From: an uncultured Chloroflexia bacterium
GTDB taxonomy: Bacteria; Chloroflexota; Chloroflexia; QHBQ01; JADMIH01
DNA length: 64,000 nucleotides
Assembly: GCA_963837315.1 (NCBI GenBank)
Contig: CAWINE010000005.1
Span: 189,207 to 253,206, forward strand
Reading direction: 5' to 3'
Part shown: positions 7,476 through 58,130 of the stretch, in pieces
Position numbering within the stretch: the first letter of the stretch is position 1
Layout of the letters: the number at the start of each line of letters is the position of its first letter
Notes under the pieces: model-generated
What the model was told of the DNA's origin: nothing
Seen by the model: the letters and a program-made list of their open reading frames with translations, nothing else
The model's database searches: none
Program-made: the position numbers and the translations under genes

Positions 7476-7629
7476 GGGACGTAGTTGTCAGTTGTCAGTT
7501 GTCAGTTGTCAGTAGACTCAGTGACCAGTGACCAGTGACCGGTGACCGGTGAGGGTAAGCAGTAAGCAGTAAGCAGTTACAAGCGGGCTACTGACAACTG
7601 ACAACTGACCAACTCGCGTATAATATCCC

Positions 7630-10582
7630 ATGGACGCCATCACCGGCTTCTCCTTCGCACGACCCAGGCACTGCTTCTCCTTCTGCTGCTGGTGCCGCTC
7701 GCGGTCTACCTCTCGCGCACCAGCGTGGCATCTGCTGCGGCCCAGGCGGCGCGGGTCGGCCTCGCTCTCCGGATTGCCCTCATTGCTTTGCTGGTGCTGG
7801 CCCTGGCGGGCACAGGCATCGTGCGCGCCGCCGACAGGCTCTCGGTGGTGTTCTTACTGGACCACTCCGATAGCGTTCCGGCCAGATGCAAATGCGCAGG
7901 CTGCATACGTAAACAGCCGCGATTGGCTCAATGACGGGCGGGGACGCAGCGGGGGTAGTGATGTTCGGGGCCAATGCCCTGGTGGACCGTCCTGTTTCGC
8001 CTGATAAGATCGCCGCCCGACCTCAGCAGCAAACCCACCACCACTTACAGCAACCTGGCGGACGCAATCAATCTGGGACTGGGAATTTTGCCTGCCGGTA
8101 CTCGCTCAAAGGCTCGTGCTCCTGTCGGATGGCCAGGAGAATGTCGGAAGTGCCGAGTGGGCGGCCCGGCTGGCCGCGCGCATGGCGTGCCCGTGGACGT
8201 TGTGCCGCTCGCCTCGTGATCGGGGCCTGAGGTGTGGGTGGACGGGCTGACCGCGCCTTCTCCTGTGCGCGAGGGCGAGCATGTTTCCCTGCAGACAGTC
8301 CGTGTCGAGCAGCACCGACACGACCTCCACTCTGACTCTCCTGATGCGATGGCGCGCCGCTCAGCAGCAGGCACAGTCAGCTCTCTCTCGGCACGAACCG
8401 CTTCGTCCAGCAATTACCCCCCGCCACAAGGGGATTTCATACATATTCTGTGCGATTGAGCCTGCCGCCGGGCGCTGACACCAGAAGGAAAACAACAGCT
8501 ACAGCGCCTTTTCGCTCGTCCTGGGCAAGCCGAGCGTCCTGTATTGTAGAAGGACACGCAGGGAAGCGCGGCTTTGCAAACGCGCTCGGCACTTCTATGC
8601 AAACAGAAGTGGTACCGGCCGCGAACATGCCCGCGACCCAAAGACTCTTGCCGGCTACGATGGCATCGTGCTGGTGAATGTGCCTGCCTCGTCTCTCTCC
8701 GGCGAGACGATGGACAGCCTGCAACTGGCGGTGCGCGACCTGGGGAAAGGGCTGATCGTAATTGGCGGAGACGAGAGCTACGCGGCGGGCGGCTATTTCA
8801 GAACCCCTCTGAAGACATGCTCCCCGTGAACCTGGACCTCCCCTCCAAACTGGACATTCCGAGCGTGGCGATGGTGATGGTGATAGACCGCTCAGGCAGC
8901 ATGGAGGAGGCACACACTGCCGGAGGGGCAGGCGTGAAGAAGATCGAGCTTGCCAAGGAAGCGGCGGCTGAGGCCGTGGCCCAATTGAGCGAGCACGATT
9001 ACGCAGGTGTTATTACGTTCGACAGCGCGGCCGACTGGGTGCTGCCTCTGCAGCAGTTGGGCGACCCTGCGCTCTTCAAGAGCAAGATCGGCAGCATCAC
9101 CGCTGGGGGCGGCACTTATATTTATGCGGGCCTTTCGCCCGCCGTAGACGCGCTGGTACAGAGCAAAGCCAGGAGCAAGCATATTATCCTGCTGACCGAC
9201 GGCGATTCCGAAATGGCGGATTACCAGAGCCTCCTGAAGAAGATGAGCGACAACGACATCACCCTCTCGACCGTGGCGGTGGGGGCAGACGCCGACCAGG
9301 CGCTCATGCAGAGCCTGGCTGCAGGGGGCAAGGGGCAATATTATTACACAGAAGATGGCAACGCCTTGCCGCAGATATTTGCCCACGAGAGCCATATCGC
9401 CTGCGCGCTCCTACCTCATCGAGCACCCATTCACGCCCGAACGCTCGGCCCCATCGCCGATCTTCGATGGCCTGGGCGGGCTGCCGCCATTGCAGGGCTA
9501 TGTGGGCACATCGCCCAGGGCAGGCGGGCAGATTTCGCTCGTGTCAGATGCGGGCGACCCCGTGATGGCGCAGTGGCAGTACGGGCTTGGCCGGGTGGTT
9601 GCCTGGACGTCGGACGCTAAAGGCCAGTGGGCCAAAGATTGGGTCAGCTGGCAGGATTTCGCCCGCTTCTGGTCTCAGGCGGTGGGCTGGTCTACCGGAC
9701 GCGCAATCGGGAGGCGCATTGCAGCCACAGGTCAGATAGAGGCCGGCACGGCAACATACAGCCGTGGATGCCACTGCGCCCGACGGTTCCTACCTGAACG
9801 GCATGACGGCGAGCGCAAGCATCGTCGCGCCTGACAACCTGACTTCCACGGTGACGCTGCGCCAGACCACAGCGGGTCGATACAAGGGAGCTTTCCGAGC
9901 CACCGAAGAAGGAGCTTACCTGGTAAGGGTGCAGGCAAGCGGAGGCGCTGGGGCCGCCGATTTAAGCCAGACGCTGGGCGTGGTCGTGCCCTATTCTCCC
10001 GAATATCGCGGCAACACCGGGGATGACGGCTTGTTGGGCAGGCTCGCGAGTCTGACGGGCGGGCGAACGTTCTGCGCCTGCAAGATACCGCCGCGCCCTT
10101 CGAGCACAATCTTAGCGCAGTGCAGACTACCGCCGATCTTTGGCCCCTGCTGGTGCTGCTTGCCGTTCTGCTGTTGCCGTTCGATATCGGCGTGAGGCGC
10201 ATTTCAATGAGCAAAGCGGACTTATTGCAGGCGATTGACACCATGAAGCGAAGGCTGGGATGGCAACCCCGCTCGCAGCCCGCCGTAGCCTCGGCTTCGT
10301 CGTCTTCGGCTGGAAATGGCCGCTCTATTCGGCGCGAAATCCCGTATTCGACGACCGGCGACCGACGACAGTTCGCTATACACTCATCGACCCGCATCTG
10401 ATGTTGCCCCGCCGGTGTTGGGCGAGCTTTCTTTACCACAAATCGAGAAGAAAGCGGAAACCGAGCCCCTCAGCCAATCGGTTCCCACAAGGTCCGATGC
10501 CGTGAGCGGAGGACCTTCCCCAGATGCGGAAGCTGAAGCGCTAGCAGCCAGGCTGCGGCGCGCTCGCGACCAACGGCGATAA
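7630..10582 (+). pseudogene. large membrane-anchored double-vWA domain protein fragmented into 6 or more frames
   Basis: An N-terminal TM segment and the MIDAS motif 'VVFLLDHSDSV' lie at 7692..7934. 'VLLSDGQENVGSAEWAA' and 'TNLADAINLGLGILPAGT' are in two other frames. The second vWA domain 'VMVIDRSGSMEE...ILLTDGDS' is at 8574..9620. The conserved 'GLGRVVAWTSDAKGQWAKDWVSWQDFARFW' is at 9355..9834. The C-terminal TM 'LWPLLVLLAVLLLPF' is at 10120 onward. Confidence 0.65.
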
Positions 10583-10772
10583 AATGGTATAGTGGGCAGT
10601 GGGCAGTGGGCAGTTGCCCATAACCAGCAAAACATAAACCCCTAATAACCTCTGTGATCTCTGTGCCCTCCTGATCCTGTGATTTAAAACAATAAAAACC
10701 TTGGCGTCTTGGCGTTGAAAACCTCGTCCCTCAACCGACAACTGACAACTGACAACTACGTAGGAGGCCCTT

Positions 10773-11208: not shown

Positions 11209-11405
11209 TCAACTGCCCGCCTTGCGATTGACAATTTGAACAACCTTCGTGTAACATTCCAGAAATCAGGTGCGGCGTTCACAGTGCGGGTCTATAAGGA
11301 CCTTTGTTGAGCGTGCGCCTGGCATGACGACCGGCGACTGGCGACCGACGATGGCTGCGGTCTACTGACAACTGACAACTGACAACTACGGTACGACACA
11401 TAACT

Positions 11406-13430: not shown

Positions 13431-13537
13431 GACGAATTACGAATTACGAATTACGAATTACGAATTGCAGATTATCCTTTCCAGTATATAATTGACCCAG
13501 ACCCGATAATTCGTAATTCGTAATTGCTGGAGTCGCT

Positions 13538-13877: not shown

Positions 13878-14100
13878 CTGATAGGGAAAGAGGGGTGTAG
13901 CGGTGCTCCCCTGGCGGGGGTTTGGGGGTGTCGCCACATCTCTCGATACTCTAAGTTGGGAACGGGTGCAGGGGCTCCCTGCCGGGGCTGGGGGTGTCCC
14001 CCATAAGTCTCCACTCCCTAAGTTGGAAGGGGGTGCAGGGGAGCGCCCCTGCAGGGGGTTTGGGGGTGTCCCCCAAATCTCTCTATTCCCTGACAGGTGG
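13878..14100. repeat. three tandem copies of a GC-rich double-hairpin REP-like element of about 70 bp
   Basis: The unit is 'gtgcaggggNNNcccctgc(c/a)ggggNtttgggggtgtcccccaNatctc...', containing two palindromes (ctgcagggg/cccctgcag and ttgggggtgtcccccaa). The same family occurs inverted at 23395..23460 and 25795..25920. Confidence 0.7.
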
Positions 14101-17743: not shown

Positions 17744-18463
17744 GTGACTGACAATGATTCGGGCAGGTTGTCCGCGTTCGAGGGGGTCGAGCGGGCTATA
17801 GTTGTGTGCGCACATGCCGACGATATGGAAACCATGATGGGGGGCACCGCCTGGCTCCTGCATGTAAAGGGCGTCCGGTTATACGAGCTGATATGCACCT
17901 CCGGCGACCTGGGCACGCACGATCCGGCTTATACGCGAGAAAGCCTGGCCGCCACTCGGGCCAAAGAAGCGCGGGATGGAGGGGCTGTGCTCGGTTTCGA
18001 TGAGGTAGTATCGCTGGAGTACCATGACGGCGAGCTTGAGCCGTCGCTGGAGCTTCGCGCAATAATAGCGCATTACTATCGCAGGTGGCAGCCCGATGCC
18101 CTCTTCACCTTCGACCCTTCGTGGGCAGGGCAGATTCACGCCGATCACCGCGCTTCGGGCCGTGCGGCGGTGGACGCGCTTATGCCGTCGCGCATGGAGC
18201 TGTACCACCCCGAGCAGTTGGCCGATAGCCAGGTAGGCAAGGTGAGCAAGGTGTTCCTGTTTGGCCCCGCTGCGGCCACCATCCAGGTAGATATCACCGA
18301 TATCTACGATAAGAAGTTGGAAGCCGGCATGGCGCACAAGAGCCAGTTCCCTGATGGAGAAAAGAACCTCGACTGGATGCGCGCTCTCGATGGGCAGGCC
18401 GCCGCCGAAGCTGGGCTCGCAGGGCGACTGGCCGAGCGCTTCGCGGAAATAAGGCTCTGGTGA
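17744..18463 (+). CDS. PIG-L/LmbE-family N-acetylglucosaminyl deacetylase (MshB/BshB-like)
   Basis: 'AIVVCAHADDMETMMGGT' and 'HADHRASGRA' match the LmbE family. Start codon is GTG. Confidence 0.8.
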   Translation: MTDNDSGRLSAFEGVERAIVVCAHADDMETMMGGTAWLLHVKGVRLYELICTSGDLGTHDPAYTRESLAATRAKEARDGGAVLGFDEVVSLEYHDGELEPSLELRAIIAHYYRRWQPDALFTFDPSWAGQIHADHRASGRAAVDALMPSRMELYHPEQLADSQVGKVSKVFLFGPAAATIQVDITDIYDKKLEAGMAHKSQFPDGEKNLDWMRALDGQAAAEAGLAGRLAERFAEIRLW

Positions 18464-19525
18464 GTGTGGAGAGTGGTGTGCGCAAAGTTGTAGACCGGCT
18501 CTGGGGTGAGATCGAGTTCGGACACCCGGCGCTTGAGGAGCTAGCCGAGTCGGAGCCTGTACAGAGACTGCGTGGAATTGCCCTGGCCGGGGCGAGCCAA
18601 TATCTCTTTCCGGACCGGCGGCCAATAACGCGCTACGAGCACAGCCTGGGCGTAATGCACATTCTAAGCATGCTCGGGGCCGGCCTTGAAGAGCAAGTGG
18701 CGGGATTACTCCACGACATTCCGCACACCGCCTTTTCGCATACCGTAGATATCGTCTTTCCGAACAACGAATATAACTACCACGAGCGATTCCAGCGCGA
18801 AATCGTTATGAGCTCCACAATACCGGACATCCTTGCCCGGCATGGCATTGACCAGAAAGCAGCGCTCGAACCCGATAGCTTTCCGCTTCTGGAAAAGCCT
18901 CTCCCCAATATATGCGCCGACCGCATCGACTATGCCCTGCGCGACCTGCGTCGCGCGGACATGGTGACCGCTGAAGAGGCTGCCGGATTTCTGGAGCGTT
19001 TTGTTCCGGCACCCGATGGTCTACTGGTAGCAGACATAGAGACAGCACTCAGGTTCAGCCGACTCTTCCTGGAAGCAAACGACAGAATTCTGGACCGGAC
19101 CGGTAGAGGCAGGCGCTTATTGGGCGCTCGCCGGGGCGATAAGGCGCGCATATACGACCGGTGATTTCAGCGACAGAGACCTCTTCTCCACCGATGAAGA
19201 GGCCATGCGAAAGCTTCGCTCCCTCGACGACAGGCTCGTCCAGGCGTATCTTGTGCTCCTAGAACCAGGCACCATCTTCTACGAGGCAAAAACAGCCGGG
19301 CCATCCTTCACCACCCATATGAAGCAACGTGTCATAGACCCACTGGTAAAAGAGCCTGCCTGGGACCAGGCACTCAGGCTCTCACAAATATCGGACGAAT
19401 ACGCACAACAGCTACGGAGCAGAGGTAACGGCCGGAGCACAGAATATCGCCTCTGGTCGTCGCGCATCACAAGCGATATCGAGAGGTTGCTTGAGGGCGA
19501 TCTGGACGTAAAACGTGAAACGTAA
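18460..19525 (+). CDS. HD-domain phosphohydrolase with an apparent frameshift near 19105
   Basis: 'RYEHSLGV...AGLLHDIPHTAFSH' is the HD motif. The C-terminus continues in the frame of ORF 19205..19525 ('YWALAGAIRRAYTTGDFSDRDLFSTDEEAMRKL'). It overlaps the LmbE gene by 4 nt. Confidence 0.7.
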
Positions 19526-19790
19526 AACGTGAAACGTAACCGCCAAGACGCCAAGATCCGCCAAGGTCCGCCAAGGTTTTTATTGTTTAAGACCAAAAGA
19601 ATCCTCTGTGAGTCTCTGTGATTCAAACCCATAATACCCTTCGTGCTCTTCGTGCTCTTCGTGCTCTTCGTGTTTAAAACCCATAAAACCTTTGTGATCT
19701 TTGTGCCTTTGTGGTTCAAACCGTAGAATCCCTGGCGGATATTGGCGGATCTTAGCGGTGAAACAAAAAGATCGTCTATCAGTGGTGGTG
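19497..19790. repeat. composite STR element (exemplar): ACGTRAA x4, CGCCAAG x4, CTCTGTG x2, CTTCGTGCT x4, CTTTGTG x3 and TTGGCGGAT x3 arrays separated by conserved linkers
   Basis: Read directly from the sequence. The same module order recurs at 35215..35470, 47630..47880, 30016..30190, 28998..29085, 33655..33790 and 38560..38660 (inverted), with partial copies at 10585..10765 and 32690..32880. Confidence 0.8.
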
Positions 19791-19799
19791 AGATGAAGA

Positions 19800-20694
19800 A
19801 TGGAGAAGCAAGCAATGGCCTCTAACGAGCGTCGCGGCCTCGTGTACGCTGCGCTGGCTGCGGCTTTCTTTTCCACGAGCCCGGTGTTCATCGTATGGGC
19901 CGACCCGATGCCCTCGCTCATAAAGACGGTGCTTCGACTGGCCATAGCAGCGGTGGCTATATGGGGCCTTTCACGTTTTCAACCTGCCCGGGAGGCGGTC
20001 GGTGAGGAGCGCCCTGCCGGTGTCAGCGCCTTGCGCTTCGCTGCCTACGGGCTTGTCACAGCGCTCCATTTCCTCTTCTATGTTGCATCGCTCGATTACA
20101 CGACCGCCGCGCATGCCCTGGCAATCGTTTATACAGCCCCGATCTTCGTTACCCTTCTTTCGGGGACCATTCTCAAAGAGTCGATCACGCGCCATCAGTG
20201 GCTGGGGGTGGCTGTGACAGTGGTTGGTATCGCTATCCTTGCCGGGTTGGAGCCGGCCATGACTGCGCGCATGGCGTTCGGGGATTTCCTTGCACTCCTA
20301 TCTGCAATCACCTACGCTCTCTATTCGTTGGCCGGGCGTTACGAGCGCGAGCGTTATTCATTGTTCTCCTATGCGTCGCGCGTGTACGGTGTGGGCGCAC
20401 TCTGGCTGCTGCCTGCCGCCCTCTTTATTTTCCCTTCCGCTCCGGCCGGCTCATGGGGTTGGCAGCAGATCGCCTCTGTGGTGGCCCTCGGCCTTGGCCC
20501 GCACGCACTCGGGCACACCCTTTACACTGCATCGCTCAGGCGCGCCCACGCTACGTATGTCAACATAATTGCGTCGCAGGAAGTGACAGGCGGGATATTA
20601 CTGGCCTTCCTCTATCCCGGGGCAGGTGCCATCGCTCAATGCCTTGCTGGGCGCCGGCGTCACGCTTGCAGGTATTGTGTTGGTGTTGAAATGA
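19800..20694 (+). CDS. EamA/DMT-family transporter with an apparent frameshift near 20615
   Basis: The protein has 10 TM segments. The C-terminus 'PSLNALLGAGVTLAGIVLVLK' is in an alternative frame. Confidence 0.65.
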
Positions 20695-27944: not shown

Positions 27945-28997
27945 ATGGTACGAGATATGTCTGAACCAGTTGATTTTTTGGAAGAAGAGGTCTTGCTAAC
28001 GGCTGACTATCCTGACGAAAGTGAGTTAGAGACTAATCATCTTCGCAGCGGAAATCTCGCGCAACACCAATCGCTGGTCGAGGAAATAGATTGGCTGCTC
28101 AAGCTGCGCACGAAAAACCTCGCCACGCGCCTCCTTGGTGAGGAGGGCCTGAAACCGGAGCTGAGGCCGTCGGGCATGGCAGCGCACACATCCGCTGTGA
28201 AGATCATACCCACGCGAGCAGCGCGCATCAGAACAGGTCTGCGGCGCGGAACACTGATGGTAACGCTGCTGGTGGTAGCGGCGGGCGTGCTGGCAAGCGG
28301 AGGCTATCTGCTTGCGTCCACTCCCTGGGTATCCAGCCTTTTCTCTGCGTCTGCCCCTAACTCGCCGAGTGCGCCCGTACAATCTCAACAGCCATCAGCA
28401 CTGCCTGTCATCGCCCAGCAGCCTGCACAGCCACCGCCGGCGGGCACCGGCGGCAGCCAGGATAGCGCTCGCGAACCGGCAGCGCCCCAGGCCGACCCCA
28501 ACCAATCTACCAACCCGAATACCTCGTCACCCGCCGATTCGTCGGCACTTTCCGGACTCGATTCCCGCGACTTGCGCGATAAAGGTATCGCCGCATACAA
28601 AGCAGGCAGCTACGCTGATGCGGTGAATGACCTGGAAGCGTCGGTCAACATGAGCAGCGACGACCCTGTGGCCCAGTACCAGCTTGGGCTTGCATATATG
28701 GCCGTGCAGAGCCGCGACCACTCGCTCGACGACGCTGAGCTTGCTTTCCGCACCGCCATATCGCTGCAGCCTAGCTGGGCCGCAGCCTACCAGATGCTGG
28801 CCGAAACGCTCATGCGCCGCGGCTACTACGAACAGGCCCTGGCACCTGCTCTTCAAGCCACCCAGCTCGACCCCACCATGGGCGAAGCCTGGATGACCCT
28901 GGGCCGGGCCTATTCAGGCGCAGGCAAAGAAGCCGAAGCCACCAAAGCCTTCGCCCAGGCCGCGAAATACGCGCCTGCGCCTCCACAGCAGCCGTAA
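27945..28997 (+). CDS. membrane-anchored TPR-repeat protein with a Pro/Ala/Gln-rich linker
   Basis: One TM segment lies at residues about 105-125. The C-terminal part carries TPR-like helices ('AYKAGSYADAVNDLE...LGLAYMA...'). Confidence 0.5.
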   Translation: MVRDMSEPVDFLEEEVLLTADYPDESELETNHLRSGNLAQHQSLVEEIDWLLKLRTKNLATRLLGEEGLKPELRPSGMAAHTSAVKIIPTRAARIRTGLRRGTLMVTLLVVAAGVLASGGYLLASTPWVSSLFSASAPNSPSAPVQSQQPSALPVIAQQPAQPPPAGTGGSQDSAREPAAPQADPNQSTNPNTSSPADSSALSGLDSRDLRDKGIAAYKAGSYADAVNDLEASVNMSSDDPVAQYQLGLAYMAVQSRDHSLDDAELAFRTAISLQPSWAAAYQMLAETLMRRGYYEQALAPALQATQLDPTMGEAWMTLGRAYSGAGKEAEATKAFAQAAKYAPAPPQQP

Positions 28998-29194
28998 ACG
29001 TAAAACGTGAGACGTGAGACGTAACCGCCAAGACGCAAAGAGCGCCTGGCGAGCCTTGGCGCTCTTTGCGTCTTGGCGGTTAAGAAAATACTCACTACGC
29101 TATTACCTTGTTTATGGTATAATAAGCCGCTTCTTACCTGGCGTCTATTAGCGTCAGCCAGTTTGCCAACCCAATATTATCCCGTAGACAAAGC

Positions 29195-29545: not shown

Positions 29546-30015
29546 GCACGCTAAACGACGAGCTCCTCGATACGATCGAGTTCCTCATTTACCGCCACCG
29601 CCTGCACACTCGCCTTCCGGTGGAGCTTGGCCCCTTGCTGGAAAGATTTGATATTCGCAGGTACAATTTCACCCCCATGACCATGGGCTTCGCGCTCGTG
29701 CGGCCCAAGGGGATGCACCTGGGTATCAACAAGAACCTCGACGTGGCAAGCCAACGAATGGCAATCGCTCACGAAGCCGCCCATATTATCGCAAACCAGC
29801 CCCACCAGATCTTCGTTTGCAAGACCAGCGATTGGTCAAAAGAGCAGGACGAGCGCGAGGCCCAGTTGATAGCAGCTTGCCTCCTCGTCCCCTTGAAGAT
29901 CGTCGCCGAAAATTACCGCGTCGGCGTGGCGAACCAACTCGCAAGAACACTAAAAGTGCCCCCCGACCTTGTTGACCTGCGCTGGTCCTTCGCGCGAGTT
30001 CATGGCGACATATAG
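29542..30015 (+). CDS. ImmA/IrrE-family zinc metallopeptidase (DUF955)
   Basis: 'IAHEAAHII' is an HExxH motif. The gene is adjacent to and overlaps the XRE gene. The listed ORF starts at 29620 but the frame is open from about 29542. Confidence 0.65.
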   Translation: MSTLNDELLDTIEFLIYRHRLHTRLPVELGPLLERFDIRRYNFTPMTMGFALVRPKGMHLGINKNLDVASQRMAIAHEAAHIIANQPHQIFVCKTSDWSKEQDEREAQLIAACLLVPLKIVAENYRVGVANQLARTLKVPPDLVDLRWSFARVHGDI

Positions 30016-30193
30016 CGGAATGCGGATTGCGGAATGCGGAATGCGGATTTACGTAACCGCCAAGACACCAAGAACGCCAAGGTTCGCTAAGGTTCTTAAA
30101 GGTGCCAGAGGAAGCAGTAAAAAACAATAAGCAGTACGGCCAGTCCGCAGTCCGCAGTCCGCATTCCGCATTCCGCATTCCGCAATTGAAAAG

Positions 30194-31338: not shown

Positions 31339-31426
31339 ACCTTACTGCCTGATCCTTCTATAGCCCTGGCGAGCCTCGCGTCGTAGCGTCTTTGCAGTGA
31401 AGGTAAATCCGCAATCCGCAATCCGT

Positions 31427-32437: not shown

Positions 32438-32894
32438 TGAGTCAGGTACTTGAAGTCAGAGGTTAGAGGTCAGAGGCGCAAGGGAATAATCAATTATATC
32501 ACACATAGAGGAAGAAGGAATGTTGGCAGCCACTGGAGCTAAGATCATCGGACTTTGGGCACCTTGCTCGGTTAAATTGGAGCCGATTCGTTGCTTAATT
32601 GCTCGATGAGCCAATAAGCCATGTTGCTGGCTATGCTAAAAATGAGACAGGAAATAAGCCGCCTGCGTCGTTTGCCTATTTGTCGAAGCTGTTGTTGCGG
32701 TACATGTCTGCGTGGACCATAGAAATACTCTGTGATCTCCGTGCAATTCATGTGATCCGTGCAATTCAAATCCATATCGTGATCTTCGTGATCTTCGTGA
32801 TTCCAACAAATAGAAACCTTTGTGACCTTTGTGTCTTTGTGGTTCAAACCGTAGAAATCCCGGCGTCTTTGCAGTAGAGGAGATCCTCGCCGCC

Positions 32895-33653: not shown

Positions 33654-33900
33654 GACTCGACCCCCTTTTCGATTGCGGATTGCGGATTGCGGATTGCGGA
33701 TTTATTTAACCGCCAAGACGCTAAGGACGCTAAGGTTCACCAAGATTTCTATTGTCTTGAATTACAGAGGCTACGGAGGACTCAGAGATCGTTCATGACT
33801 TACGATTTACGTTTCATCAACTCGTCATGTAACCAGTAAGCAGTACAGCCAATCCGCATTCCGCATTCCGCATTCCGCATTCCGCATTCCGCGATCGCCC

Positions 33901-35103: not shown

Positions 35104-35890
35104 ATCTGAGCCTCCTGTTTCTGGCAGCCGCATCCGATTATTTTGGGACAGTTCGTTGTACCACCGGAGCGGGGTGTTGTCAAAACGATGGGCGCTGACC
35201 GGTAGGCAGTGGGCAGTGAGGCAGTGAAGACGTAAGACGTAACCGCCAAGGCGCCAAGAACGCAAAGGCTCGCCAAGGTTTTTATTGTTACAAACCATAA
35301 CAATCCTCTGCGATCTCTGCGCACTCTGGTCTCTGCGCACTCTGTGGTCATGAGCAGGGTGCCCTCTGGGCCGCGAGCTCTGATTCAAACCCATAATATC
35401 CTTCGTGGTCTTCGTGATCCTCGTGATCTTCGTGGTTAAAACCGTAAATATCTTGGCGGAACTTGGCGTCTTGGCGGTGAACGGAATCGTTCGCCGGTAG
35501 TCCTTTGCACAACATTACGTAAATCTAAGGAAGATGCATCAAGCAAAGATACGTTGTATTACGTAGCCGAATCGTTGACAGCGTTTTCCCCAAAGTGGTA
35601 TCCTCTGGAAGCGTTTTGAGCGTCGAGTTACGACCTTTCGTACGGAAAGGGTCCCTTATTGCGGGGAGGATAACGGCCACAGCCCAAGGCTGGAGACATG
35701 TTTGCCTGCTCGTTTCACTGCACTACTATACAAACAGGATGGCCCTTCAATAGCATACCGGTGATCTTATAGGCTCCCCTGGAGCCGGCACAATTTTCTC
35801 CCACTCTGGGAAACGGACACGTTTCACTACCGGCAGTATGGCAATAGCCATCGCCTGTAAAACTTACACCCTCAAGTTTGGAGGCGCATT

Positions 35891-37642
35891 TTGAGCTTCA
35901 CCTCACAGTTAAGTGCACGCACCGCCAGAATCATCGCAGCATCAGGTCTTTTTCTCGCAATCATATTCGGAATTATAGCGGCAAATCCATCTTCTACTTA
36001 TGCAGCATATCCTATTGTTGCGGGCGGCGCGGCCCTTGTCGCAAACACCGACGGCGGCACAGTACGCGTCCGCAACGGCGCAGGCACCACCTACGACCAG
36101 GTAGCCGAAGCCCATGAGGGCGAGGTAGTGTCGATCCTCGATGGCCCGGCCAAAGACAGCGGGGGAAGCAACTGGTACAAGGTATCGGCTCCCGGCGGCA
36201 CAGGATGGGTCATCAGCGATTATCTCCAGGGCACGCCGGTCAAAATTGTCAAGGGCGGAAATGCCACGATCGCAAACACCGACGGCGGCACAGTACGCGT
36301 CCGCAACGGCGCAGGCACCACCTACGACCAGGTAGCCGAAGCCCATGAGGGCGAGGTGGTGTCCATCCTCGATGGCCCGGCCAAAGACAGCGGAGGGAGC
36401 AACTGGTACAAGGTATCGGCTCCCGGCGGCACAGGATGGGTCATCAGCGATTATCTCCAGGGCAAAATCAGCGTCCCGGCAAACGCCAATAATACTACAA
36501 GCAAAGGCACATCTACAGCCGGTAAGTCTGGCGTCTATCAGGGCGGACAAGCCACCGTGTCCAATACCGGCGGCGATCCAATCCGCGTCCGCAACGGCGC
36601 AGGCACCACCTACGACCAGGTAGCCGAAGCCCATGAGGGCGAAGTGGTGTCCATCCTCGACGGTCCGGCCAAAGACAGCGGGGGGAGCAACTGGTACAAG
36701 GTATCAGCTCCCGGCGGCACAGGATGGGTCATCAGCGATTATCTCCAGGGCACGGCGGGTAGCTCCAATGCCAAGCTCGCCGGACCCAGGCTCACGGGCT
36801 TCGCCCGCGTGGGCAATTCCGATGGGGACCCCGTACGCCTGCGCACAGACGCGAGCAGTAACGGCAGTGTGATCACCGAGTTTGCCGCCGATACCTCAGT
36901 GGCGATCAAACAGGGACCGTTAACGAGCAGCGACGGCATTGCGTGGTACCAGGTATCCGGCAATGGCCTCACCGGTTGGATGATGGCCCAGTACCTCGTC
37001 CAATCTACTGCCCCGGCCTCCCCGCCTCCTGCCGAGACACCCGTGGCGAAACCTGCTGTTGTGACCAAGCCCGCCGCGCCCGCCGCGCCGGCTCCCACAG
37101 CCGTTCCGGCACCACCGGCAGCCGCCGCGCCTCCTGCAGCCGTAGCACCACCCGCACAGCCCGCCGCGCCAACGGCCGCGCCTGCTGCAACCCCGGCTCC
37201 GCCACGTAGCTCCAGCCAACCGCAGGCCCAGGCTGTATCTGCACCTTCCAGTTCTTCCAGCACCGGTAGCGCCGTGGTGAGCCTGGCCCTCAAGTATGTC
37301 GGATCGTACTATGTTATGGGCGGCGTCGGACCAAGGGGCTTCGATTGCAGCGGTTTCGTCTATTACATATTGAACCACTCAGGCGTGCGTATGTCCCGCG
37401 ACATGTACGCGCAATGGGCCAGCGGCACGCACATCTCAAGCAACAATCTGAAACCTGGCGACCTGGTCTTCTTCTCGAATACCTACAAAGCGGGTCTTTC
37501 ACACGTCGCCATCTATATCGGCAACGGCAGGATTGTCCACGCCGAAAATGAAAGCACCGGTGTAACTATCAGCGACCTCTGGAGCAGCTACTATAGCTCT
37601 CACTACACAGGAGCTGTCCGGCCCAGCAACTACGGCAGGTAA
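35891..37642 (+). CDS. secreted cell-wall hydrolase: signal/TM + 4 SH3b repeats + Pro/Ala-rich linker + NlpC/P60 peptidase
   Basis: Three near-identical copies of about 200 nt encode 'GGTVRVRNGAGTTYDQVAEAHEGEVVSILDGPAKDSGGSNWYKVSAPGGTGWVISDYLQG'. A fourth SH3b copy is divergent. The NlpC/P60 domain is 'GFDCSGFVYYIL...HVAIYIGNGRIVHA'. Confidence 0.85.
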   Translation: MSFTSQLSARTARIIAASGLFLAIIFGIIAANPSSTYAAYPIVAGGAALVANTDGGTVRVRNGAGTTYDQVAEAHEGEVVSILDGPAKDSGGSNWYKVSAPGGTGWVISDYLQGTPVKIVKGGNATIANTDGGTVRVRNGAGTTYDQVAEAHEGEVVSILDGPAKDSGGSNWYKVSAPGGTGWVISDYLQGKISVPANANNTTSKGTSTAGKSGVYQGGQATVSNTGGDPIRVRNGAGTTYDQVAEAHEGEVVSILDGPAKDSGGSNWYKVSAPGGTGWVISDYLQGTAGSSNAKLAGPRLTGFARVGNSDGDPVRLRTDASSNGSVITEFAADTSVAIKQGPLTSSDGIAWYQVSGNGLTGWMMAQYLVQSTAPASPPPAETPVAKPAVVTKPAAPAAPAPTAVPAPPAAAAPPAAVAPPAQPAAPTAAPAATPAPPRSSSQPQAQAVSAPSSSSSTGSAVVSLALKYVGSYYVMGGVGPRGFDCSGFVYYILNHSGVRMSRDMYAQWASGTHISSNNLKPGDLVFFSNTYKAGLSHVAIYIGNGRIVHAENESTGVTISDLWSSYYSSHYTGAVRPSNYGR

Positions 37643-38487: not shown

Positions 38488-38780
38488 TATGGCCGCGTAG
38501 TCTTACAATCGCCTTCAGCCATGCATACCAAAGCGATAGCATCTCCTGCCGCGTTAGCCAAGTCGTAGTGCTTACTGCTTACTGCTTACATCTATAAAAC
38601 CTTGGCGCCCTTGGGGGAACTTAGCGTCTTGGCGGTTACCGTAAATCCGCAATCCGCAATCCGCAATGGGTAGTCCGCACCAAGCCCGGGTGGAAGAGCT
38701 AATTGGGCGGTAAGAAGCAGAAAGTTGCCTTTGTGCCTGCTCCTTGTTCGCCGGACTCTATACTGAAGGCTCCCTGCAGG

Positions 38781-41815: not shown

Positions 41816-42075
41816 TTGCTGCTGTCAGTTGTCAGTTGTCAGTTGTCAGTTGTCAGTTGTCAGTAGACGGTGGGCAGCAATAAACAGTGAGCAACACCTA
41901 CCGGCATCATCTTCGTGCTCAAGTCGGGTTTGCAGTGGGGGATCCTTCCGCAGGAGATAGGTTGTGCCAGTGGGATTGGATGTCTCCCAGGAGGTCACCG
42001 GCGAAAACCGTGCTCCCAACGCCGACAAAGGTTATCTTTGGCATTCTCCACCTCGCTATGAGGATACCAAAACTT

Positions 42076-47564: not shown

Positions 47565-48077
47565 CCGCCAGGGGCACGCTTGCCCTGACCCAAAACGCCC
47601 TCAGGCCCGTGGAGCGAAAGCGGGTAACCTGAGGACGGAAACGTGAAACGTGAAACGTAAGACGTAACCGCCAAGACGCCAAGTTCCGCCAAGGTCGCCA
47701 AGATTATTCAAGATTATTATTGTTTTGACCGTAAAATACCATTAGCGAAGCGAACTCTTGTCACTAAATTCTCTGTGATTTAAAACCACAAAACCTTCGT
47801 GATCTTTGTGCTCTTAGTGTCTTTGTGGTTCAAATCGTAAAAACCTTGGCATCTTGGCGTCTTGGCGTTGAAAAATAAGTAGTAAGCAGTAGAAGCATGA
47901 CACTGGACCAGTCTTCGAGGGCAACAGAAGGGCGTAGGGAAGTGCGTAGTATACCCCGTGTAGCGGGCGGCCACGCGCCTATGGCCGAGCCTGAGCCTGA
48001 CGCGGCTGAGAACGGCGTGGCGGCTGTCACCCGCATTCTCAGCCCGGAGGAAGCCGTCGCCATAGCCCGCTCGTCCC

Positions 48078-49574: not shown

Positions 49575-49712
49575 TTGCGGACCGTCCAATTGCGGATTGC
49601 GGATTGCGGATTAAAGTATGACCACTGACGACCAAAGAAATCAGAATACAGACCAGAGCGAATTGGAGCCGGTCAATCCGCAATCCGCAATCCGCAATCC
49701 GCAATCTAACAC
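49575..49712. repeat. inverted heptamer arrays TTGCGGA x3 ... TCCGCAA x4 forming a potential long hairpin in the moaC leader / 5' end
   Basis: Read directly. The moaC reading frame stays open back through the TCCGCAA array. Confidence 0.7.
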
Positions 49713-50399: not shown

Positions 50400-52743
50400 T
50401 CACTTCTTGTCCCCCTGTTCCGTGTCCGCTTCACGCGATGTCTGTACGTTCCGACTTCCCTGCCTGCTCTGGGGTGGAGTGTGCTTCACCTGGACGTCCA
50501 GCCCACCGTCCGCTCGCGTAACTTCTACCTCGATATCATCGCCATGGCGGACAAAGCGGAGGTCGGCGCTGCCTTTGCCAACCTGAAGGCCGCATACCTC
50601 AAGGCTGTCGACCATGTTCGGGAGGGAGGGGTGGCCCACGATTAGACTGTTGTTGAATCCATCCGGCTCAAAGCCCAGCATAGTAGTTACCATATAAGGC
50701 ACCGAACCAGCCGCCCAGGCCTGAGGGTGGCAGGCGACCGGATAATGCACCGGCACGCCAAATCGCTTGCGCTCGAAACCGGCGAACAACTCCGGGAGAC
50801 GGTAATGGTTGAAGCGCATGGCCGCATCCACGATCCCGTTGCATACTTTGGCCGCTTCTTCAACGGCACCATGTCGCCTGAACCCCGCTGCGATTATTGA
50901 GTTGTCATGCGGCCACACGGTGCCCAGGTGATAGGCTATAGGATTGAAGCGCCTGGCTTTTGATGTCAGCGTACGGATGCCCCACCCGCTGTACATTTCG
51001 TCTGACATCAACTGCTCGACCGTACGCGCTGCCTTGTCCCGGTCGCAGATGCCTGTCCAAATGCGCCTGTCCGGGATTGGAAGAGAGCACAGCGCATGGT
51101 TCTCCGCCCTTTTGCAACGCCAGCGCGTAGAAGCCATCTTTGTCCAGCCAGAAGTCTCGGTTGAAGCGCTCTTTCAGGTCGGCAGCCTCCTTCTCCAGTT
51201 GGGCAGCTCTTTTCTCGTCACCGGCTCGCCTGTAAAGGTTGGCTATTTCACGTTTGGCGTAGTAAGCATAACCTTGCACCTCCACGAGTGCTATGGGGGG
51301 CCGGGCCAGGCTGCCGTCGGCGTTGACTATGGCATCGCCCGAGTTTTTCCAGCCCTGGTTTGCGAGGCCCCCTCATCCTTGGTCCCCCGAGCGCTCTCGT
51401 AGTCTATGTAGCCATCGCCATCCGTATCGCCGTAGTCGCGCATCCAGTTGAGTGCCTGTTCGATGTTATCCTTGAGATCGGTGAATATCCGCTTGTCGCC
51501 GGTCCATTTAGTGTATTCGCCCATTAGGACCAGAAAGAGGAGGGTCGCATCGATGCTACCGTAGTAGGGCGACTGAGGTATCTCGTTCAGGCGGGCCATC
51601 TCTCCAACACGTAACTCGTGTAATATCTTGCCCGGTTGCTCGTCCCGATAGTCATCCACCTTCGTGCCCTGATACTTCGCAAGGAGGCGCAAGGTCTGCT
51701 CGGCAATGGACGGACGAAAAGCCAGGGTTTGCAGGGCGGTGATCAGGCTGTCGCGCCCGAAGAGAGTGCCGAACCAGGGCAGGCCCGCGGCAAAGAAGTT
51801 TTCCTCGTCAAGACAACTTCTCAAGACATGGAGGTCGCGCAGCGAGCGGTCGAGGACATTATTCACAAGGAGAGAGTCGGTAGTTACAGAGGTCTGGTCG
51901 CTCAGCCACTTATCGGCTGACTTATCGAATTGTTTGGTAGCTCCTTTAACATCAGGGTGGAACCTCGTCTTTGGTCGGGCATCCTCTTTCTTCTCCGTCT
52001 CGGCCAGGACTACCGAAATAAGGAGTTGTTTGCGCTCCCTCGCTTTCAGGCTGATGTCGAAGTGGGCTGTCTCATCATGTGTGGCCCTGGGTTGCTCCGA
52101 GAAGATAGATCGAGACGCTCCTATAAAGGCCGTCCGCGCCATCATACGCAAAGGTGAGCGCATCGCCTTCCCATTTGCTCGGGTGCAGCTTGCCCAGCTT
52201 CTTAGGTAACAGCCCGCGCACGTCGAATATGTCCTCGAACTCGGCGCGAAATCGGAAGGAGAGCGGGAAAGATGCGGGTTCTTCGCTGTAGTTTTCGAAG
52301 GTAAGCAAGTCGCTCAACATAAGCTTTTCGTTGTCGAGCATGCGCTCCCACTCGATCCCTATCTTCTCCTTTTCAATGAGAGTGCCATCTTGCATGTGCA
52401 GGTCAGGGTTGGTCAGCTCAAAGACCGACATGTAGCCCCGCTCGGCGCTTGCCACCAGACTGCTTGGGCGCACGCCGGCAATTTTCATTTCGAAGCCGTT
52501 CAGGTAGCGGCAGTCGTGGTAATAGAGGCCGTAGCCATGTCCCTCGCTCATCGGCACTCGCCCGTCGGGTAACGTTAGAAAGAAAATGTCGCCTTCCTTG
52601 ATGACAATAGCGTCCGATATGTTGCGCACAACCGAAGGCGTGCCCTGGGTAAGCACACGCTGCTTACGCTCGCTCTTCTGCTGGGGCGTCATCTCATGCT
52701 TCTTACTGTTTTCTGATTGAGCTACGTGGTCTGTTTGCTGCAT
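50400..52743 (-). pseudogene. glycogen-debranching / amylo-alpha-1,6-glucosidase family protein (GDE_N + GDE_C) split into 4 frames
   Basis: The N-terminal domain is 'IKEGDIFFLTLPDGRVPMSEGHGYGLYYHDCRYL' (52075..52743). The GDE_C domain is 'FAAGLPWFGTLFGRDSLITAL' (51327..52163). The C-terminus 'MYSGWGIRTLTSKARRFNPIAYHLGTVWPHDNS' is at 50400..51137. Confidence 0.7.
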
Positions 52744-53299
52744 TACTTCTATCTCCTATAGCGAGTACCAGGTACCACTCTCATTTCTCATTTCTCATTT
52801 CTTCGTGAAGCGAGACCCTGTCCCTGGGCTAAGTCCTTCAGTAAGACATACGCAAGGTGCAGGCCATTGCGCCCGCCCCTTTCAGAGGACTGGGCCTGCA
52901 CTTGCAGGCGATGATCTATTTCCCATGCGATGTACAAGTGTGGGTGATGTAGAAGCGTGGCGCTCATGTACCCGCACCGGTCTCCTTCACGTTCTGCTGC
53001 CGGTTGGATTCGGTGTTGCCTCCCATTTGTGGGCTCTGCTCATGGTGAGGGTTCAAACCTGTGCCGTGCGAAGTTGTGCGTCCGGCGCGCTGCGCCCAAC
53101 TGAGAGAATCGCCCGCCGGATGGAGCCACGACCGCACCCACCAGCCGGCTACCGCCCGTACTTCCGGCCACCGGCCCACCAGGCCCCTGGTTTCACCTTT
53201 CGATGGTCCTGCCATGTCGTTCCTCCAATTACGAATTACGAATTACGAATTACGAATTCCGATTCATACGTAATTCGTGTAATTCGTAATTCCTTAGCG

Positions 53300-56867: not shown

Positions 56868-56989
56868 CGTTGTCTTCTCCAAGAAGTGAGAAGTGAGAAG
56901 TGAGAAATGAGAAATGAGATGTGAGATCGTCGACCCTGATTCCATTTCTCTTCGTCGACCTCTCACTTCTCATTTCTCATTTCTCATTT

Positions 56990-58130
56990 CTATAAAACCC
57001 GATACGGCGCGGCGTCCTGCCGCTTTAACTCGAGACCCATCCCCGGTCGAGAAAGGTCAGGGCGCAGCTCGCCATCCACCGGGTCGAGCGCACCGTCGAA
57101 GATCATATGCTCGATGCGAGCGTGGTCGTGGAAGTATTCGAGGTGCCGCAGCTTGGGCACAGAGCAGCAAGGGTGAACGTGGATAGAGGGCCCGCAGTGA
57201 GCAGATAGCGGTATAGGACGTGCCTCGCACAGCGCGCCCACTTTGAGGAAGCCGCTTATCCCCAGGCAGCGGGTAGCGTCCGCCTGTAGCACGTCCACCG
57301 CCTCCGCATCCAACATGCGCCGGAAGTAGAAAGGGTCATATCCATACTCACCTGCCGCAATGTCTATGCCTGCAGGCGCTCGGTCCCGGAGGAGACGCAA
57401 ACCTTCCAGGTCGTCCGAGGAGACCGGTTCCTCGAACCAGGTCACTCCCTGTGCTGCGAACGCCTCCGCGAAGGCTAATGCCTGCTTGCGGCTGTATGCG
57501 CCGTTGGCGTCCACGAAAAGCTCAACGTGAGGGCCGATTGCCTGCGCGGGCCGCCTTCACCCTCTCGAGGTCGATGGATGGGTCGGTGCCGATCTTCATC
57601 TTCACCCGCTTGAACCCCTGCTCGGCCCAGCCTCCCAGTTGGTCGCGCATCTGTTCTGGAGTGTAAGTGGTGAAGCCGCCGCTGCCGTAGAGTGGCACCG
57701 AGGTGCGCACGGCACCCAGGAGCGTCACCAATGGCAGGCCGAGGAGGCGGGCTTTGAGGTCCCAAAGGGCAGAGTCGACTGCCGAGATAGCCATGGCCGC
57801 GACCCCAGGGCGGCCCAGGTTGCGAATGGAACCCAGCATCGCGTCCCATGCGCCCGGTACCGCCATGGCATCGTGGCCACCAAGGAGGGTAGGAAAATTG
57901 TCAAGGATAAGCTGTGCAGTGGCGCGGTTTGCGTAGGTATAGCCGAGGCCGGTCATGTCTCCCGCGCTGACCTCCGCCACGACGATAGTGCTGTTGTGCC
58001 AGAGGTATGTGCCGTCGCCCTCCGGCGCATCGGTCGGTATCGTGTAAGCCGAAGCTCGCACCGATTCTATAGGAACGTCAATCACGGTCGCTTCTCGCGA
58101 GTTATGAGTTCTCATTATCTCCTGTCTCAT
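56990..58130 (-). CDS. enolase-superfamily enzyme (mandelate racemase / muconate lactonizing enzyme family) with an apparent frameshift near 57520
   Basis: The N-terminal capping domain and 'KMKIG' lie in 57522..58130. The C-terminal barrel ('DANGAYS', 'WFEEP', 'DIAAGE') lies in 56990..57514. Confidence 0.7.

Follow-up and report, generated by a model that had tools for sequence, protein, structure and literature searches.

A modular, hypervariable intergenic palindrome in a Chloroflexia genome shares its arm sequence with loci from ten or more bacterial phyla

What kind of element is built from short tandem arrays joined by conserved linkers, recurs at several places in one genome, and changes its units and copy numbers from place to place? 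The question is raised by a 64,000-nt stretch of an uncultured Chloroflexia genome (assembly GCA_963837315.1, contig CAWINE010000005.1, forward-strand positions 189,207 to 253,206; hereafter the window), in which a model's reading of the letters and open reading frames (ORFs), which we call the sequence-only reading, had described such an element at 19497-19790. This focal element is flanked by two + strand genes, one for an HD-domain protein and one for an EamA/DMT transporter; sequence reading and Tandem Repeats Finder (TRF) resolve it into an intergenic mosaic in which tandem arrays of 7-10 nt alternate with AT-rich linkers. Comparison of an empty site in one relative (locus L131) with the filled site in another (L132) shifts the bounds of the inserted unit to 19506-19798. 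The first ~20 nt of this unit are the last codons and TAA stop (19523-19525) of the HD-domain gene, the stop falling within the third ACGTRAA unit. The element belongs to a dispersed homologous family, and at orthologous sites with identical flanks whole units are found in some relatives and missing from others. Its arrays expand, contract and homogenize unit by unit, its arms co-vary, and its centers are replaced while the arms persist.

The most widely distributed part of the element is its arm. We scanned one genome per GTDB species with the pattern TAACCGCCAAGRCRCNAAG, for which we estimate about 70 chance matches in the whole collection (596 Gb, two strands, equal base frequencies), and found the arm core, tTTAACCGCCAAG-R-CGCCAAG-RN-CGCCAAG(-aaa), at no fewer than 114 loci from ten or more phyla; a shorter form of the arm is TAACCGCCAAG-R-CGCCAAG, and its terminus is ACCGCCAAGRCGCCAAGRNCGCCAAG. 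The cross-phylum matches are judged not to be chance, because they carry a third box, conserved positions that the pattern leaves free, and inverted partners. Among the matches listed, the third CGCCAAG box, which the pattern does not require, is present in 100/126, the unconstrained positions +21 to +27 are conserved at 61-85%, and an inverted partner, CTTGGCGGTTA, lies within 300 nt in 58/126. Inverted-pair elements in this set are 73-226 nt long with a hypervariable center, and the consensus end of 123 of its arms is tTTAACCGCC, the ends in the window being ACGTAACCGCC.

By record title, the hosts among the matches listed are Planctomycetota, Chloroflexota, Alpha-, Beta- and Gammaproteobacteria, Bacteroidota and Cyanobacteriota, together with Acidobacteriota, Armatimonadota, Verrucomicrobiota/Lentisphaeria, Sumerlaeota and Desulfobacterota; these names follow the records, of which that of at least one metagenome-assembled genome (MAG), labeled 'Streptomycetaceae', appears mis-assigned. 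The G+C content of these loci ranges from 0.45 to 0.68, and nearly all of the carriers are MAGs. Finished isolate replicons with the arm are the chromosome of Lacipirellula limnantheis I41 and plasmids of Nostoc, which carry a single arm. Typical intergenic hairpins were also found on some phage contigs, at 10 loci where a reversed control pattern gave 2, and 5,426 E. coli genomes gave 0 matches. Gene context among the matches listed is co-directional in 21 cases, convergent in 11 and divergent in 4, with gene calls at these foreign loci being crude stop-to-stop ORFs; between co-directional (+,+) genes, the stop codon of the upstream gene immediately precedes most elements. Targeting of the TAA stop codon as such was rejected, long open frames being distributed 21, 11 and 21 over the three reading frames.

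Several loci show the same boxes in other settings. A Vibrio parahaemolyticus plasmid, pVP2HP (locus L120, NZ_AP014859.1, 1477-1530), holds a perfect (ACGCCAAG)x7 in an unannotated region, and arrays of (ACGCCAAG) occur at 1-5 places per plasmid in 16 pVA1-type plasmids of acute hepatopancreatic necrosis disease (AHPND) strains, the same box in simple tandem. In Nostoc sp. UHCC 0926 plasmid pn1 (L119, 1455-1555), a CGCCAAG x3 arm is nested in a hairpin, AGGACTTACGCA ... TGCGTAAGTCCT, and Rhizonema (L020) has the same extra flanking bases, TTAATTTAT..AACCGCC...TCGTAGAGT. Because of this nesting and the shared flanks, a cyanobacterial sub-family may be nested inside a second repeat. A sister box family, TAACCGCAGAnnnCGCAGA (CGCAGAG / CTCTGCG), stands beside CGCCAAG arms in L024, L060 and L092 (Verrucomicrobiota, Acidobacteriota and Chloroflexia) and also forms the CTCTGCG array at 35306-35346 in the window copy at 35204.

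All six arrays that the sequence-only reading had placed in the focal interval were found where it put them, by sequence reading and TRF (Table 1). Its linkers, claimed to be conserved elsewhere, recur in the window above the expectation from dinucleotide-preserving shuffles: 4 sites versus 0.52 for GGTTTTTATTGTT, 3 versus 0.17 for ATTCAAACCCATAATA and 3 versus 0.00 for TTTGTGGTTCAAACCGTAGAA, with 15 versus 3.6 for CCGCCAAG. CTYNGYG arrays (at least two units, 1-3-nt spacing, both strands) number 22, against 0.74 expected and a maximum of 4 in 100 such shuffles. Recurrence extends beyond the window, the linkers being found in L115 and L132 and the arm core in more than 100 genomes. A metagenome scan for the lineage-specific linker TGTGGTTCAAACCGTAGAA returned one match, to an unrelated AT-rich coding contig, which is chance.

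The building block of the element is a supermodule of ~50 nt, in which an AT-rich linker of ~16 nt (TTCAAACC-N-TAAAA type) is followed by three to four copies of a 9-10-nt unit with the 7-nt core CTYNGYG (CTCTGTG, CTTCGTG, CTTTGTG or CTTGGCG). The left module of the focal element is the reverse complement of such a block, (CCGCCAAGnn)x4 and then GGTTTTTATTGTTTAA; three or four forward modules follow to its right, and the (ACGTRAA)n array lies outside the left arm. In the Chloroflexia mosaic, an inverted pair of supermodules thus forms the arms, two or three more serve as inner direct repeats, and heptamer arrays stand outside. What is conserved in cis across hosts is the arm of ~28 bp, with three CGCCAAG boxes 8-10 bp apart, usually as an inverted pair around a fast-changing center. 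Split genes in the window indicate that array counts may include small indel errors; the arrays themselves are confirmed by independent assemblies.

At least five further sites in the window repeat the module order of the focal element, and a MAFFT alignment of eight copies, from the window and one relative, yields one consensus of ~205 nt with a common module order. Every copy listed by the sequence-only reading exists, and the full copies share that order; those given as 30016-30190 and 33655-33790, however, have only the left CGCCAAG arm. At both of these sites (30015-30184 and 33671-33892 in Table 1), the palindrome is made by heptamer arrays, not by CGCCAAG arms, around the single arm. 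The minimal copy at 28996-29085 starts at the stop codon of ORF 27945-28997, and the partial copy at 32700-32880 is antisense to both neighboring genes. Because the whole window contains ~28 non-overlapping period-7 arrays (TRF), the focal element represents a single case of a repeat grammar used genome-wide.

Related genomes, to which the sequence-only reading had pointed for comparison, differ both in the presence of the element and in array copy number. Exact look-ups of window proteins gave no record, and through homologs we reached and examined five syntenic relatives, three of them (L115, L131 and L132) at 80-92% nucleotide identity to the window and to one another and two (L116 and L133) serving as outgroups at 62-73%. 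The HD/EamA junction is filled in the window and in L115 and empty in both outgroups. In L131 it is empty, reading ...gcttgctg|agtggaaaagca..ATG (also given as ...gagggcttgctg|agtggaaaagcaatcaATGgcc), and the two genes overlap, whereas L132, the closest relative of L131 (90-92% nucleotide identity), has an insert of ~235 nt with the same module order between flanks identical to those of L131. The simplest history would be a single gain followed by clean loss in L131; alternatively, a filled allele may have moved into L132. In the HD/EamA spacer of L133 (4040-4085), there is a degenerate heptamer run, CCACCGT CCACTGT CCACCAT CCATCGT, which is an independent array at the site that the composite element occupies in the window.

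Where relatives share an element, its interior has been remodeled. The L115 ortholog of the focal element lacks one whole module and has CTCTGTG x4 for the x2 of the window, and the gatcgtc that occurs once in the window has expanded in place to (CGGTCGT)x8 in L115. At the position of the window's CTTTGTG x3, L132 has CTTGGTG x3, all units having changed in concert. The element at 28996-29085 and its L115 ortholog have common ends, with ~190 nt of extra interior modules in L115 and an interior of 10 nt in the window; conversely, a full L115 element (18640-18895) corresponds to a decayed right arm at 31363-31426 in the window. Arms of (GCGGAAT)n/(ATTCCGC)n in the window have become (GCGGATT)n/(AATCCGC)n in L115 (15091-15210), the change being compensated in both arms.

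The same behavior is seen outside this lineage. Two Burkholderiales loci whose E1beta proteins are 97% identical, L017 and L106, differ between pdhB and pdhC, where L017 has a hairpin of 100 nt and L106 a spacer of 16 nt, and 5' of pdhA their flanks and arms are identical and the center is wholly different. Together with L131/L132, this makes two clean presence/absence pairs only. Two copies in one Chloroflexia genome (L090) have common arm details and different perfect central hairpins, with 4 compensated differences.

The long imperfect hairpin proposed by the sequence-only reading holds for the outer arms alone. By folding, (CCGCCAAGnn)x3-4 pairs with (CTTGGCGnn)x3 over ~35-45 nt per end, and the 100-150-nt interior, with its CTCTGTG, CTTCGTG and CTTTGTG arrays, is direct and unpaired. 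The focal arm-arm duplex has a free energy (dG) of -53.4, against a shuffled mean of -20.3 and minimum of -34.9; across 8/8 composite copies the duplex lies at -44 to -59 kcal/mol, against -26 to -41 for the best of 200 shuffles. These duplexes, the eight-copy alignment and the differences between orthologs bear out the claim of a modular, hypervariable dispersed family with complementary ends.

The complementarity belongs to the DNA, or to either single strand, and not to one transcript, because G-U and A-C mismatches are about equally frequent, fold energies are symmetric, arms lie in both orientations, and Rfam gives no match. The arms of the composite copies contain 254 Watson-Crick pairs, 32 transversion mismatches and, on the + strand, 15 G-U versus 14 A-C mismatches. 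In co-directional contexts, sense and antisense fold energies show no systematic difference, and single arms stand in either orientation relative to genes. An Rfam search of all elements, at gathering score and at E <= 1, gave no match to them, with only chance miRNA-like hairpins elsewhere. Selection at the RNA level is rejected by the mismatch counts and the fold-energy symmetry. No terminator- or promoter-like site was found within 19497-19800, and an intrinsic terminator was rejected, the hairpins being followed not by a U-tract but by TGAAA or TTAAGAAAA.

Our preferred reading, still tentative at a probability of roughly 0.45, regards the element as a foldback/REPIN-like mobile DNA palindrome of intergenic regions, non-autonomous, selfish or near-neutral, and built from slippage-prone arrays. 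In this reading, array changes would stem from slipped-strand mispairing, palindromy would be preserved by fold-back synthesis or by template switching within the molecule, and processing of the hairpin tip may renew the centers; template switching and fold-back synthesis are known behaviors of quasi-palindromes. A trans-acting protein, of a DNA-binding or recombination type, would bind the triple-box arm and copy or excise the unit. Horizontal transfer would carry the element from phylum to phylum, with phages and plasmids as possible vehicles, because phage contigs and plasmids carry copies.

Several observations weigh against a mobile palindrome. About half of the cross-phylum loci among the matches listed are single-arm, and the interiors are unrelated in 9/11 same-genome pairs, unlike ordinary miniature inverted-repeat transposable elements (MITEs). 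No gene family is common to the neighborhoods of the 114 listed loci, and among the matches listed there is no kilobase-scale arm pair bounding an autonomous element, save separate neighboring elements; in the window, no transposase or RAYT-like gene was found among ~30 of roughly 70 ORFs scanned. In the single pair L131/L132, the boundary is ambiguous by 2 nt (GA) with no convincing target-site duplication, and the left boundary is a heptamer array, not a TAACC terminus; the L131 state could stem from a microhomology deletion and that of L132 from recombination bringing in a filled allele. A conserved host reader could equally explain why 28-nt arms are nearly identical in more than 10 phyla.

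A broader proposal, which we consider doubtful, is that the CGCCAAG-triplet arm is the cis-site of an unrecognized pan-bacterial system. Such a system might be foldback mobile DNA, in which a putative protein, single-stranded DNA or RNA-guided machinery copies or excises ~28-nt units, makes them palindromic, and spreads them by phage and plasmid; or it might be a shared 'box code', in which horizontally shared boxes would be read by conserved nucleic-acid-binding proteins. If this were true, the Chloroflexia composite would be its most elaborate known form.

The main rival to a mobile palindrome is a functional cis-element, in which the CGCCAAG, CTYNGYG and heptamer arrays would be protein-binding sites or 3'-end hairpins that tune adjacent genes. 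Candidate readers would be nucleoid-associated or ribbon-helix-helix (RHH)-type proteins on DNA, or cold-shock, S1 or CsrA-type proteins on mRNA, with REP-like transcript stabilization or termination as a further role. The recurrence of the same boxes in many phyla, their spacers fixed at 1 nt and then 2 nt, would be explained in this way, as would the very stable stems, the placement after stop codons with few elements between divergent genes (21/11/4 among the matches listed), and interior arrays that are sense to the downstream gene in 4/5 window copies. (C)AACTGA arrays 8-25 nt 5' of four start codons in the window have the placement of TAACTGA arrays elsewhere (PMC4679880). A functional cis-element nevertheless fits strand symmetry and presence/absence poorly. 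G-U and A-C counts show no strand asymmetry (15 versus 14), energy is not biased with gene direction, single arms occur in both orientations, close relatives differ in presence before the same housekeeping genes, and box spacings of 8, 9 or 10 nt are not helically phased. Neither a U-tract after the hairpins, nor a terminator- or promoter-like site inside the element, nor an Rfam match was found. We consider a cis-element unlikely overall.

Less probable still is a classical MITE, an internally deleted DDE transposon with termini ACCGCCAAGRCGCCAAG and a TA (IS630/Tc1-mariner) or TAA/TTAA (IS5-type) duplication, whose terminal inverted repeats would hold three transposase-binding sub-repeats and would be acted on in trans by an autonomous element elsewhere in the genome. 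Its inverted repeats of ~28 bp, the 73-226 nt sizes and the intergenic, multi-copy occurrence are typical; the ends are always TA-ACCGCC...GGCGGT-TA, or GGCGG-TAA in L017, L030, L036 and L106; and a broad host range is expected of a transposase independent of host factors. The TAA...TTA ends are inverted, however, and are thus part of the palindrome, not a direct duplication; the clean empty site has no TA at its junction, and the inserted unit begins with a heptamer array. No autonomous copy was found in 122 loci among the matches listed, nor in the window, interiors are unrelated between copies, and the terminal TAA is not preferentially an in-frame stop (21, 11, 21).

We think it very unlikely that the arrays are a pure mutational by-product of slippage and quasi-palindrome template switching in situ, with no kinship by transposition and no function. 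Expansion in situ is seen (gatcgtc to (CGGTCGT)x8), arrays homogenize unit by unit, and the heptamers are of many kinds; in several genomes, heptamers were the commonest class of long repeat according to Mrazek et al. 2007 (summarized in PMC4679880), who proposed polymerase slippage. A by-product would leave unexplained the identical non-repetitive 13-21-nt linkers at separate loci, the 28-nt arm with fixed spacers in more than 10 phyla, and the clean gain or loss of a whole 235-293-nt unit. An assembly or binning artifact, that is, adapter-like or chimeric sequence across metagenome assemblies, for which the predominance of MAGs among the matches listed and the split genes in the window (indel errors) might speak, is effectively refuted by the orthologous comparisons and by isolate replicons, namely the chromosome of Lacipirellula limnantheis I41 and plasmids of Nostoc, as the elements lie between intact, syntenic, lineage-specific genes at loci of 45-68% G+C, come from various assemblers and read types judged by contig names (k141_, NODE_, long-read contigs), and have their own center and array counts in each copy.

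The sequence-only reading recognized no described family, and the absence of an Rfam match and of a transposase among the nearby ORFs scanned agrees with this; partial likenesses exist, as the flanking arrays resemble STRR or long simple-sequence repeats and the mosaic parallels BIME/REPIN. RAYT genes, which accompany REP systems and are normally single-copy per genome, were found neither among the ~30 window ORFs nor as a recurrent flank gene family at the 114 listed loci. REP doublets form hairpins, and REP-type units occur in mosaics of palindromic units and linker motifs (PMC3116915, PMC3333891, PMC2817692). Like the REP/BIME/REPIN sequences of Proteobacteria, the elements described here are short, multi-copy, intergenic, non-autonomous and variable between close relatives, are often just 3' of genes and rare in divergent promoter regions, and combine palindromic units with few conserved linkers, their inverted doublets forming hairpins around a variable spacer; the REPIN arrangement, an inverted pair of conserved units around a variable spacer in multiple extragenic copies, is what we observe. 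In contrast to a REP arm, which is a single imperfect palindrome of 20-40 nt, the arms here are arrays of 7-nt boxes with 1-3-nt spacers and lack the GTAG or CGTC tag at their ends. Whereas a REP sequence is specific to its species, the present arm scarcely changes across more than 10 phyla, and the interior direct arrays are additional to REP organization.

STRR and long simple-sequence repeats (Mazel 1990 and Mrazek 2007, as cited in PMC4679880) share with the elements intergenic tandem heptamer arrays of many types, a likeness that holds for the flanking arrays only, and STRR and TAACTGA arrays share a sporadic cross-phylum distribution suggestive of horizontal spread. TAACTGA arrays stand 5' of start codons in Beggiatoaceae, Cyanobacteria and Bacteroidetes, where MacGregor proposed post-transcriptional regulators (PMC4679880), and the (C)AACTGA arrays of the window are likewise directly 5' of start codons. 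The hosts of STRR are (heterocystous) cyanobacteria, whereas the host here is a member of the Chloroflexia that has sigma-54 and in whose window HIP1 is not enriched. The STRR unit is 7 nt head-to-tail, whereas the core arrays here have 8-10-nt periods with a conserved 7-nt box, and inverted arms with conserved non-repetitive linkers fall outside the STRR description. The small dispersed repeats (SDR, 21-27 nt) of Nostoc, reportedly described by Elhai and colleagues in 2008, are said to be found within cyanobacteria only. They resemble the present arms in being units of ~27 nt inserted in conserved intergenic DNA and nested in repeats or hairpins with no known enzyme, and the single CGCCAAG arm that Nostoc plasmids carry within another hairpin is SDR-like in size and nesting.

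The present elements resemble Foldback (FB) transposons of Drosophila, which have long inverted arms of tandem short sub-repeats and a variable loop, are frequently excised and rearranged, and are mostly non-autonomous. Inverted arms of variable-number sub-repeats around a variable loop are also what we find here; the likeness is architectural only, Foldback elements being eukaryotic, kilobase-sized and unrelated in sequence. Repetitive hairpin-forming elements of sponge mitochondria likewise offer an architectural parallel only (PMC2800124). Bacterial MITEs such as Correia/NEMIS of Neisseria and Nezha of cyanobacteria (reviewed in PMC3184786) share terminal inverted repeats, to which the ~28-nt inverted arms correspond, a length of 70-300 nt, and an intergenic location, sometimes inside operons and foldable in mRNA. 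The elements here differ from them in having no demonstrable target-site duplication, no parent insertion sequence among the matches listed or the window ORFs scanned, no conserved interior, and a cross-phylum distribution. Small palindromic mosaic repeats are thus already known; what is unusual is the distribution across phyla.

A literature search for CGCCAAG/CTTGGCG tandem strings found no paper, and matches for single-arm strings were to the Widom 601 nucleosome-positioning sequence, which contains TTAACCGCCAAG by coincidence. Likeness of single heptamers and linkers to parS, an IHF site and 5S rRNA was within chance by rough count. A sigma-54 promoter was rejected as well, TGGCAC-N5-TTGC and TTGGCG-N2-3-TTGGCG differing in spacing by inspection; cyanobacteria, which to our knowledge lack sigma-54, also carry the arm.

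Table 1. Modules of the focal element and related copies in the window.
Feature	Positions	Strand	Remarks
Heptamer array (ACGTRAA) x4.9	19506-19539	+	left boundary of inserted unit; holds TAA stop of HD-domain ORF; TRF
Left arm, (C)CGCCAAG + 1-3 nt, x4 (CRCNRAG boxes)	19540-19575	+	TRF: CCGCCAAGnn x3.8; pairs with 19731-19758
Left arm start, cross-phylum core (T)AACCGCCAAG-A-CGCCAAG	from 19540	+	
Linker L1, GTTTTTATTGTTTAAGACCAAAAGAATC	19576-19603	+	reverse-complement type of TTCAAACC..TAA linkers
Direct array CTCTGTG x2, unpaired interior	19604-19620	+	x4 in L115 ortholog
Linker L2, ATTCAAACCCATAATA(CC)	19621-19638	+	identical at 35383
Direct array CTTCGTGCT x3.8, unpaired interior	19639-19672	+	TRF
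Linker L2', TTTAAAACCCATAAAAC	19673-19689	+	array + linker module absent from L115 ortholog
Direct array CTTTGTG x3	19690-19713	+	CTTGGTG x3 at same position in L132
Linker L3, GTTCAAACCGTAGAATC	19714-19730	+	identical at 32836; 2 mismatches at 47822; L115 x2, L132
Right arm, CCTGGCGG-AT-ATTGGCGG-AT-CTTAGCGG, degenerate CTTGGCG x3	19731-19758	+	complement of left arm; TRF TGGCGGAnn x2.6 at 19733-19758
Tail TGAAACAAAAAGATCGTCTATCAGTGGTGGTGAGATGAAG, right end of inserted unit	19759-19798	+	its 'gatcgtc' is (CGGTCGT)x8 in L115
Minimal copy	28996-29085	+	(AAACGTR)x4, then near-perfect 26-bp hairpin TAACCGCCAAGACGCAAAGAGCGCC / GGCGCTCTTTGCGTCTTGGCGGTTA; dG -58.2, z = -9.6
Full composite copy	35204-35482	+	left arm 35243-35277, linker L1, CTCTGCG arrays 35306-35346, linker L2 35383-35398, CTTCGTG x3.8 35401-35434, right arm 35452-35477
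Full composite copy	47634-47872	+	(GAAACGT)x3, left arm 47668-47702, CTTCGTG/CTTTGTG array 47795-47827, linker, right arm 47845-47868
Partial copy, right half only	10620-10722	+	CTCTGTG array, linker TTTAAAACAATAAAAAC, CTTGGCGT x2, TGAAAAC
Partial copy, right half	32700-32880	+	CTCTGTG/CTCCGTG, CTTCGTG, CTTTGTG arrays, linker GTTCAAACCGTAGAA, decayed right arm
Variant	30015-30184	+	(GCGGAAT)x4.7, left CGCCAAG arm 30053-30095, spacer, (CAGTCCG/CATTCCG)x6.3
Variant	33671-33892	+	(GATTGCG)x4.6, left CGCCAAG/CGCTAAG arm 33706-33745, spacer, (TCCGCAT)x5.7
Single arm, reversed	38569-38667	-	(TGCTTAC)x3, CTTGGCG..CTTAGCGTCTTGGCGGTTAC, then (AATCCGC)x3.4
Decayed right-arm remnant + (AATCCGC)x2.9	31363-31426	+	L115 ortholog (18640-18895) is a full composite element

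Beyond the copies in Table 1, a small heptamer vocabulary is reused across the window. The region at 7476-7629 follows the same grammar with other units, its outer arrays (AGTTGTC)x4.4 and (ACTGACA)x3.4 being complementary and its interior holding direct arrays (CAGTGAC)x4.9 and (GTAAGCA)x3.3. Pairs of an array and its reverse-complement array lie within single intergenic regions at 13432-13525, 49589-49706, 53227-53292 and 56882-56991; their units are ACGAATT/TAATTCG, ATTGCGG/CAATCCG and AATTACG/CGTAATT, and AGAAGTG/TCTCATT, which pairs solely via G-T wobbles. All 10 interior CTYYGTG arrays, in the copies at 10620, 19506, 32700, 35204 and 47634, are on the + strand regardless of gene direction, which hints at a replication-strand effect in a sample of only five or six linked elements.

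The (C)AACTGA(C) arrays lie at 7590-7614, 10732-10757, 11364-11387 and 41823-41864 (the last on the reverse strand) with common flanks CTACTGAC...AACTAC, on the sense strand 8-25 nt 5' of the start codons at 7630, 10773, 11406 and 41815, and the AACTGA heptamer family also occurs in L116 and L092. A separate repeat family has a ~67-nt unit with an GGGGGTGTCCCCC hairpin, present as three tandem copies at 13891-14091 and also in L116 (16470-16600) and L115 (2960-3150).

The window has a G+C content of 51-63%, mostly 54-62%, and encodes sigma-54 and NtrC-type activators; the closest homologs of its RpoN and EamA proteins are from uncultured Chloroflexota/Chloroflexia MAGs. The HD-domain gene, a single ORF of ~350 aa in relatives, is split into ORFs 18460-19164 and 19205-19525, and a glycogen-debranching-like gene is in three ORFs at 50400-52743; these split genes are either pseudogenes or long-read assembly indel errors. 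A gene at 35891-37642, encoding four SH3_3 domains and NlpC/P60, holds a 231-nt tandem duplication, 97% identical, at 36039-36464, which is a recent in-frame domain duplication of 77 codons.

Non-coding sequence that is nearly identical in different bacterial phyla is hardly known except for rRNA, tRNA and a few riboswitches. The presence of a 28-nt arm in many phyla and on phage contigs implies that either tiny mobile DNA passes between phyla very frequently or a shared protein reads it. For the genomes that carry them, the elements rewrite gene ends, as at the stop codon of the HD-domain gene, separate genes that overlap in relatives, and sit within operons, as between pdhB and pdhC in L017; their hypervariability makes them potential strain markers and a likely cause of breaks in metagenome assemblies. 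In either case, two long-standing puzzles would be addressed: by what route the smallest repeats (REP, SDR and STRR-like) disperse when no enzyme is evident, and what underlies the patchy occurrence of heptamer-type arrays among phyla.

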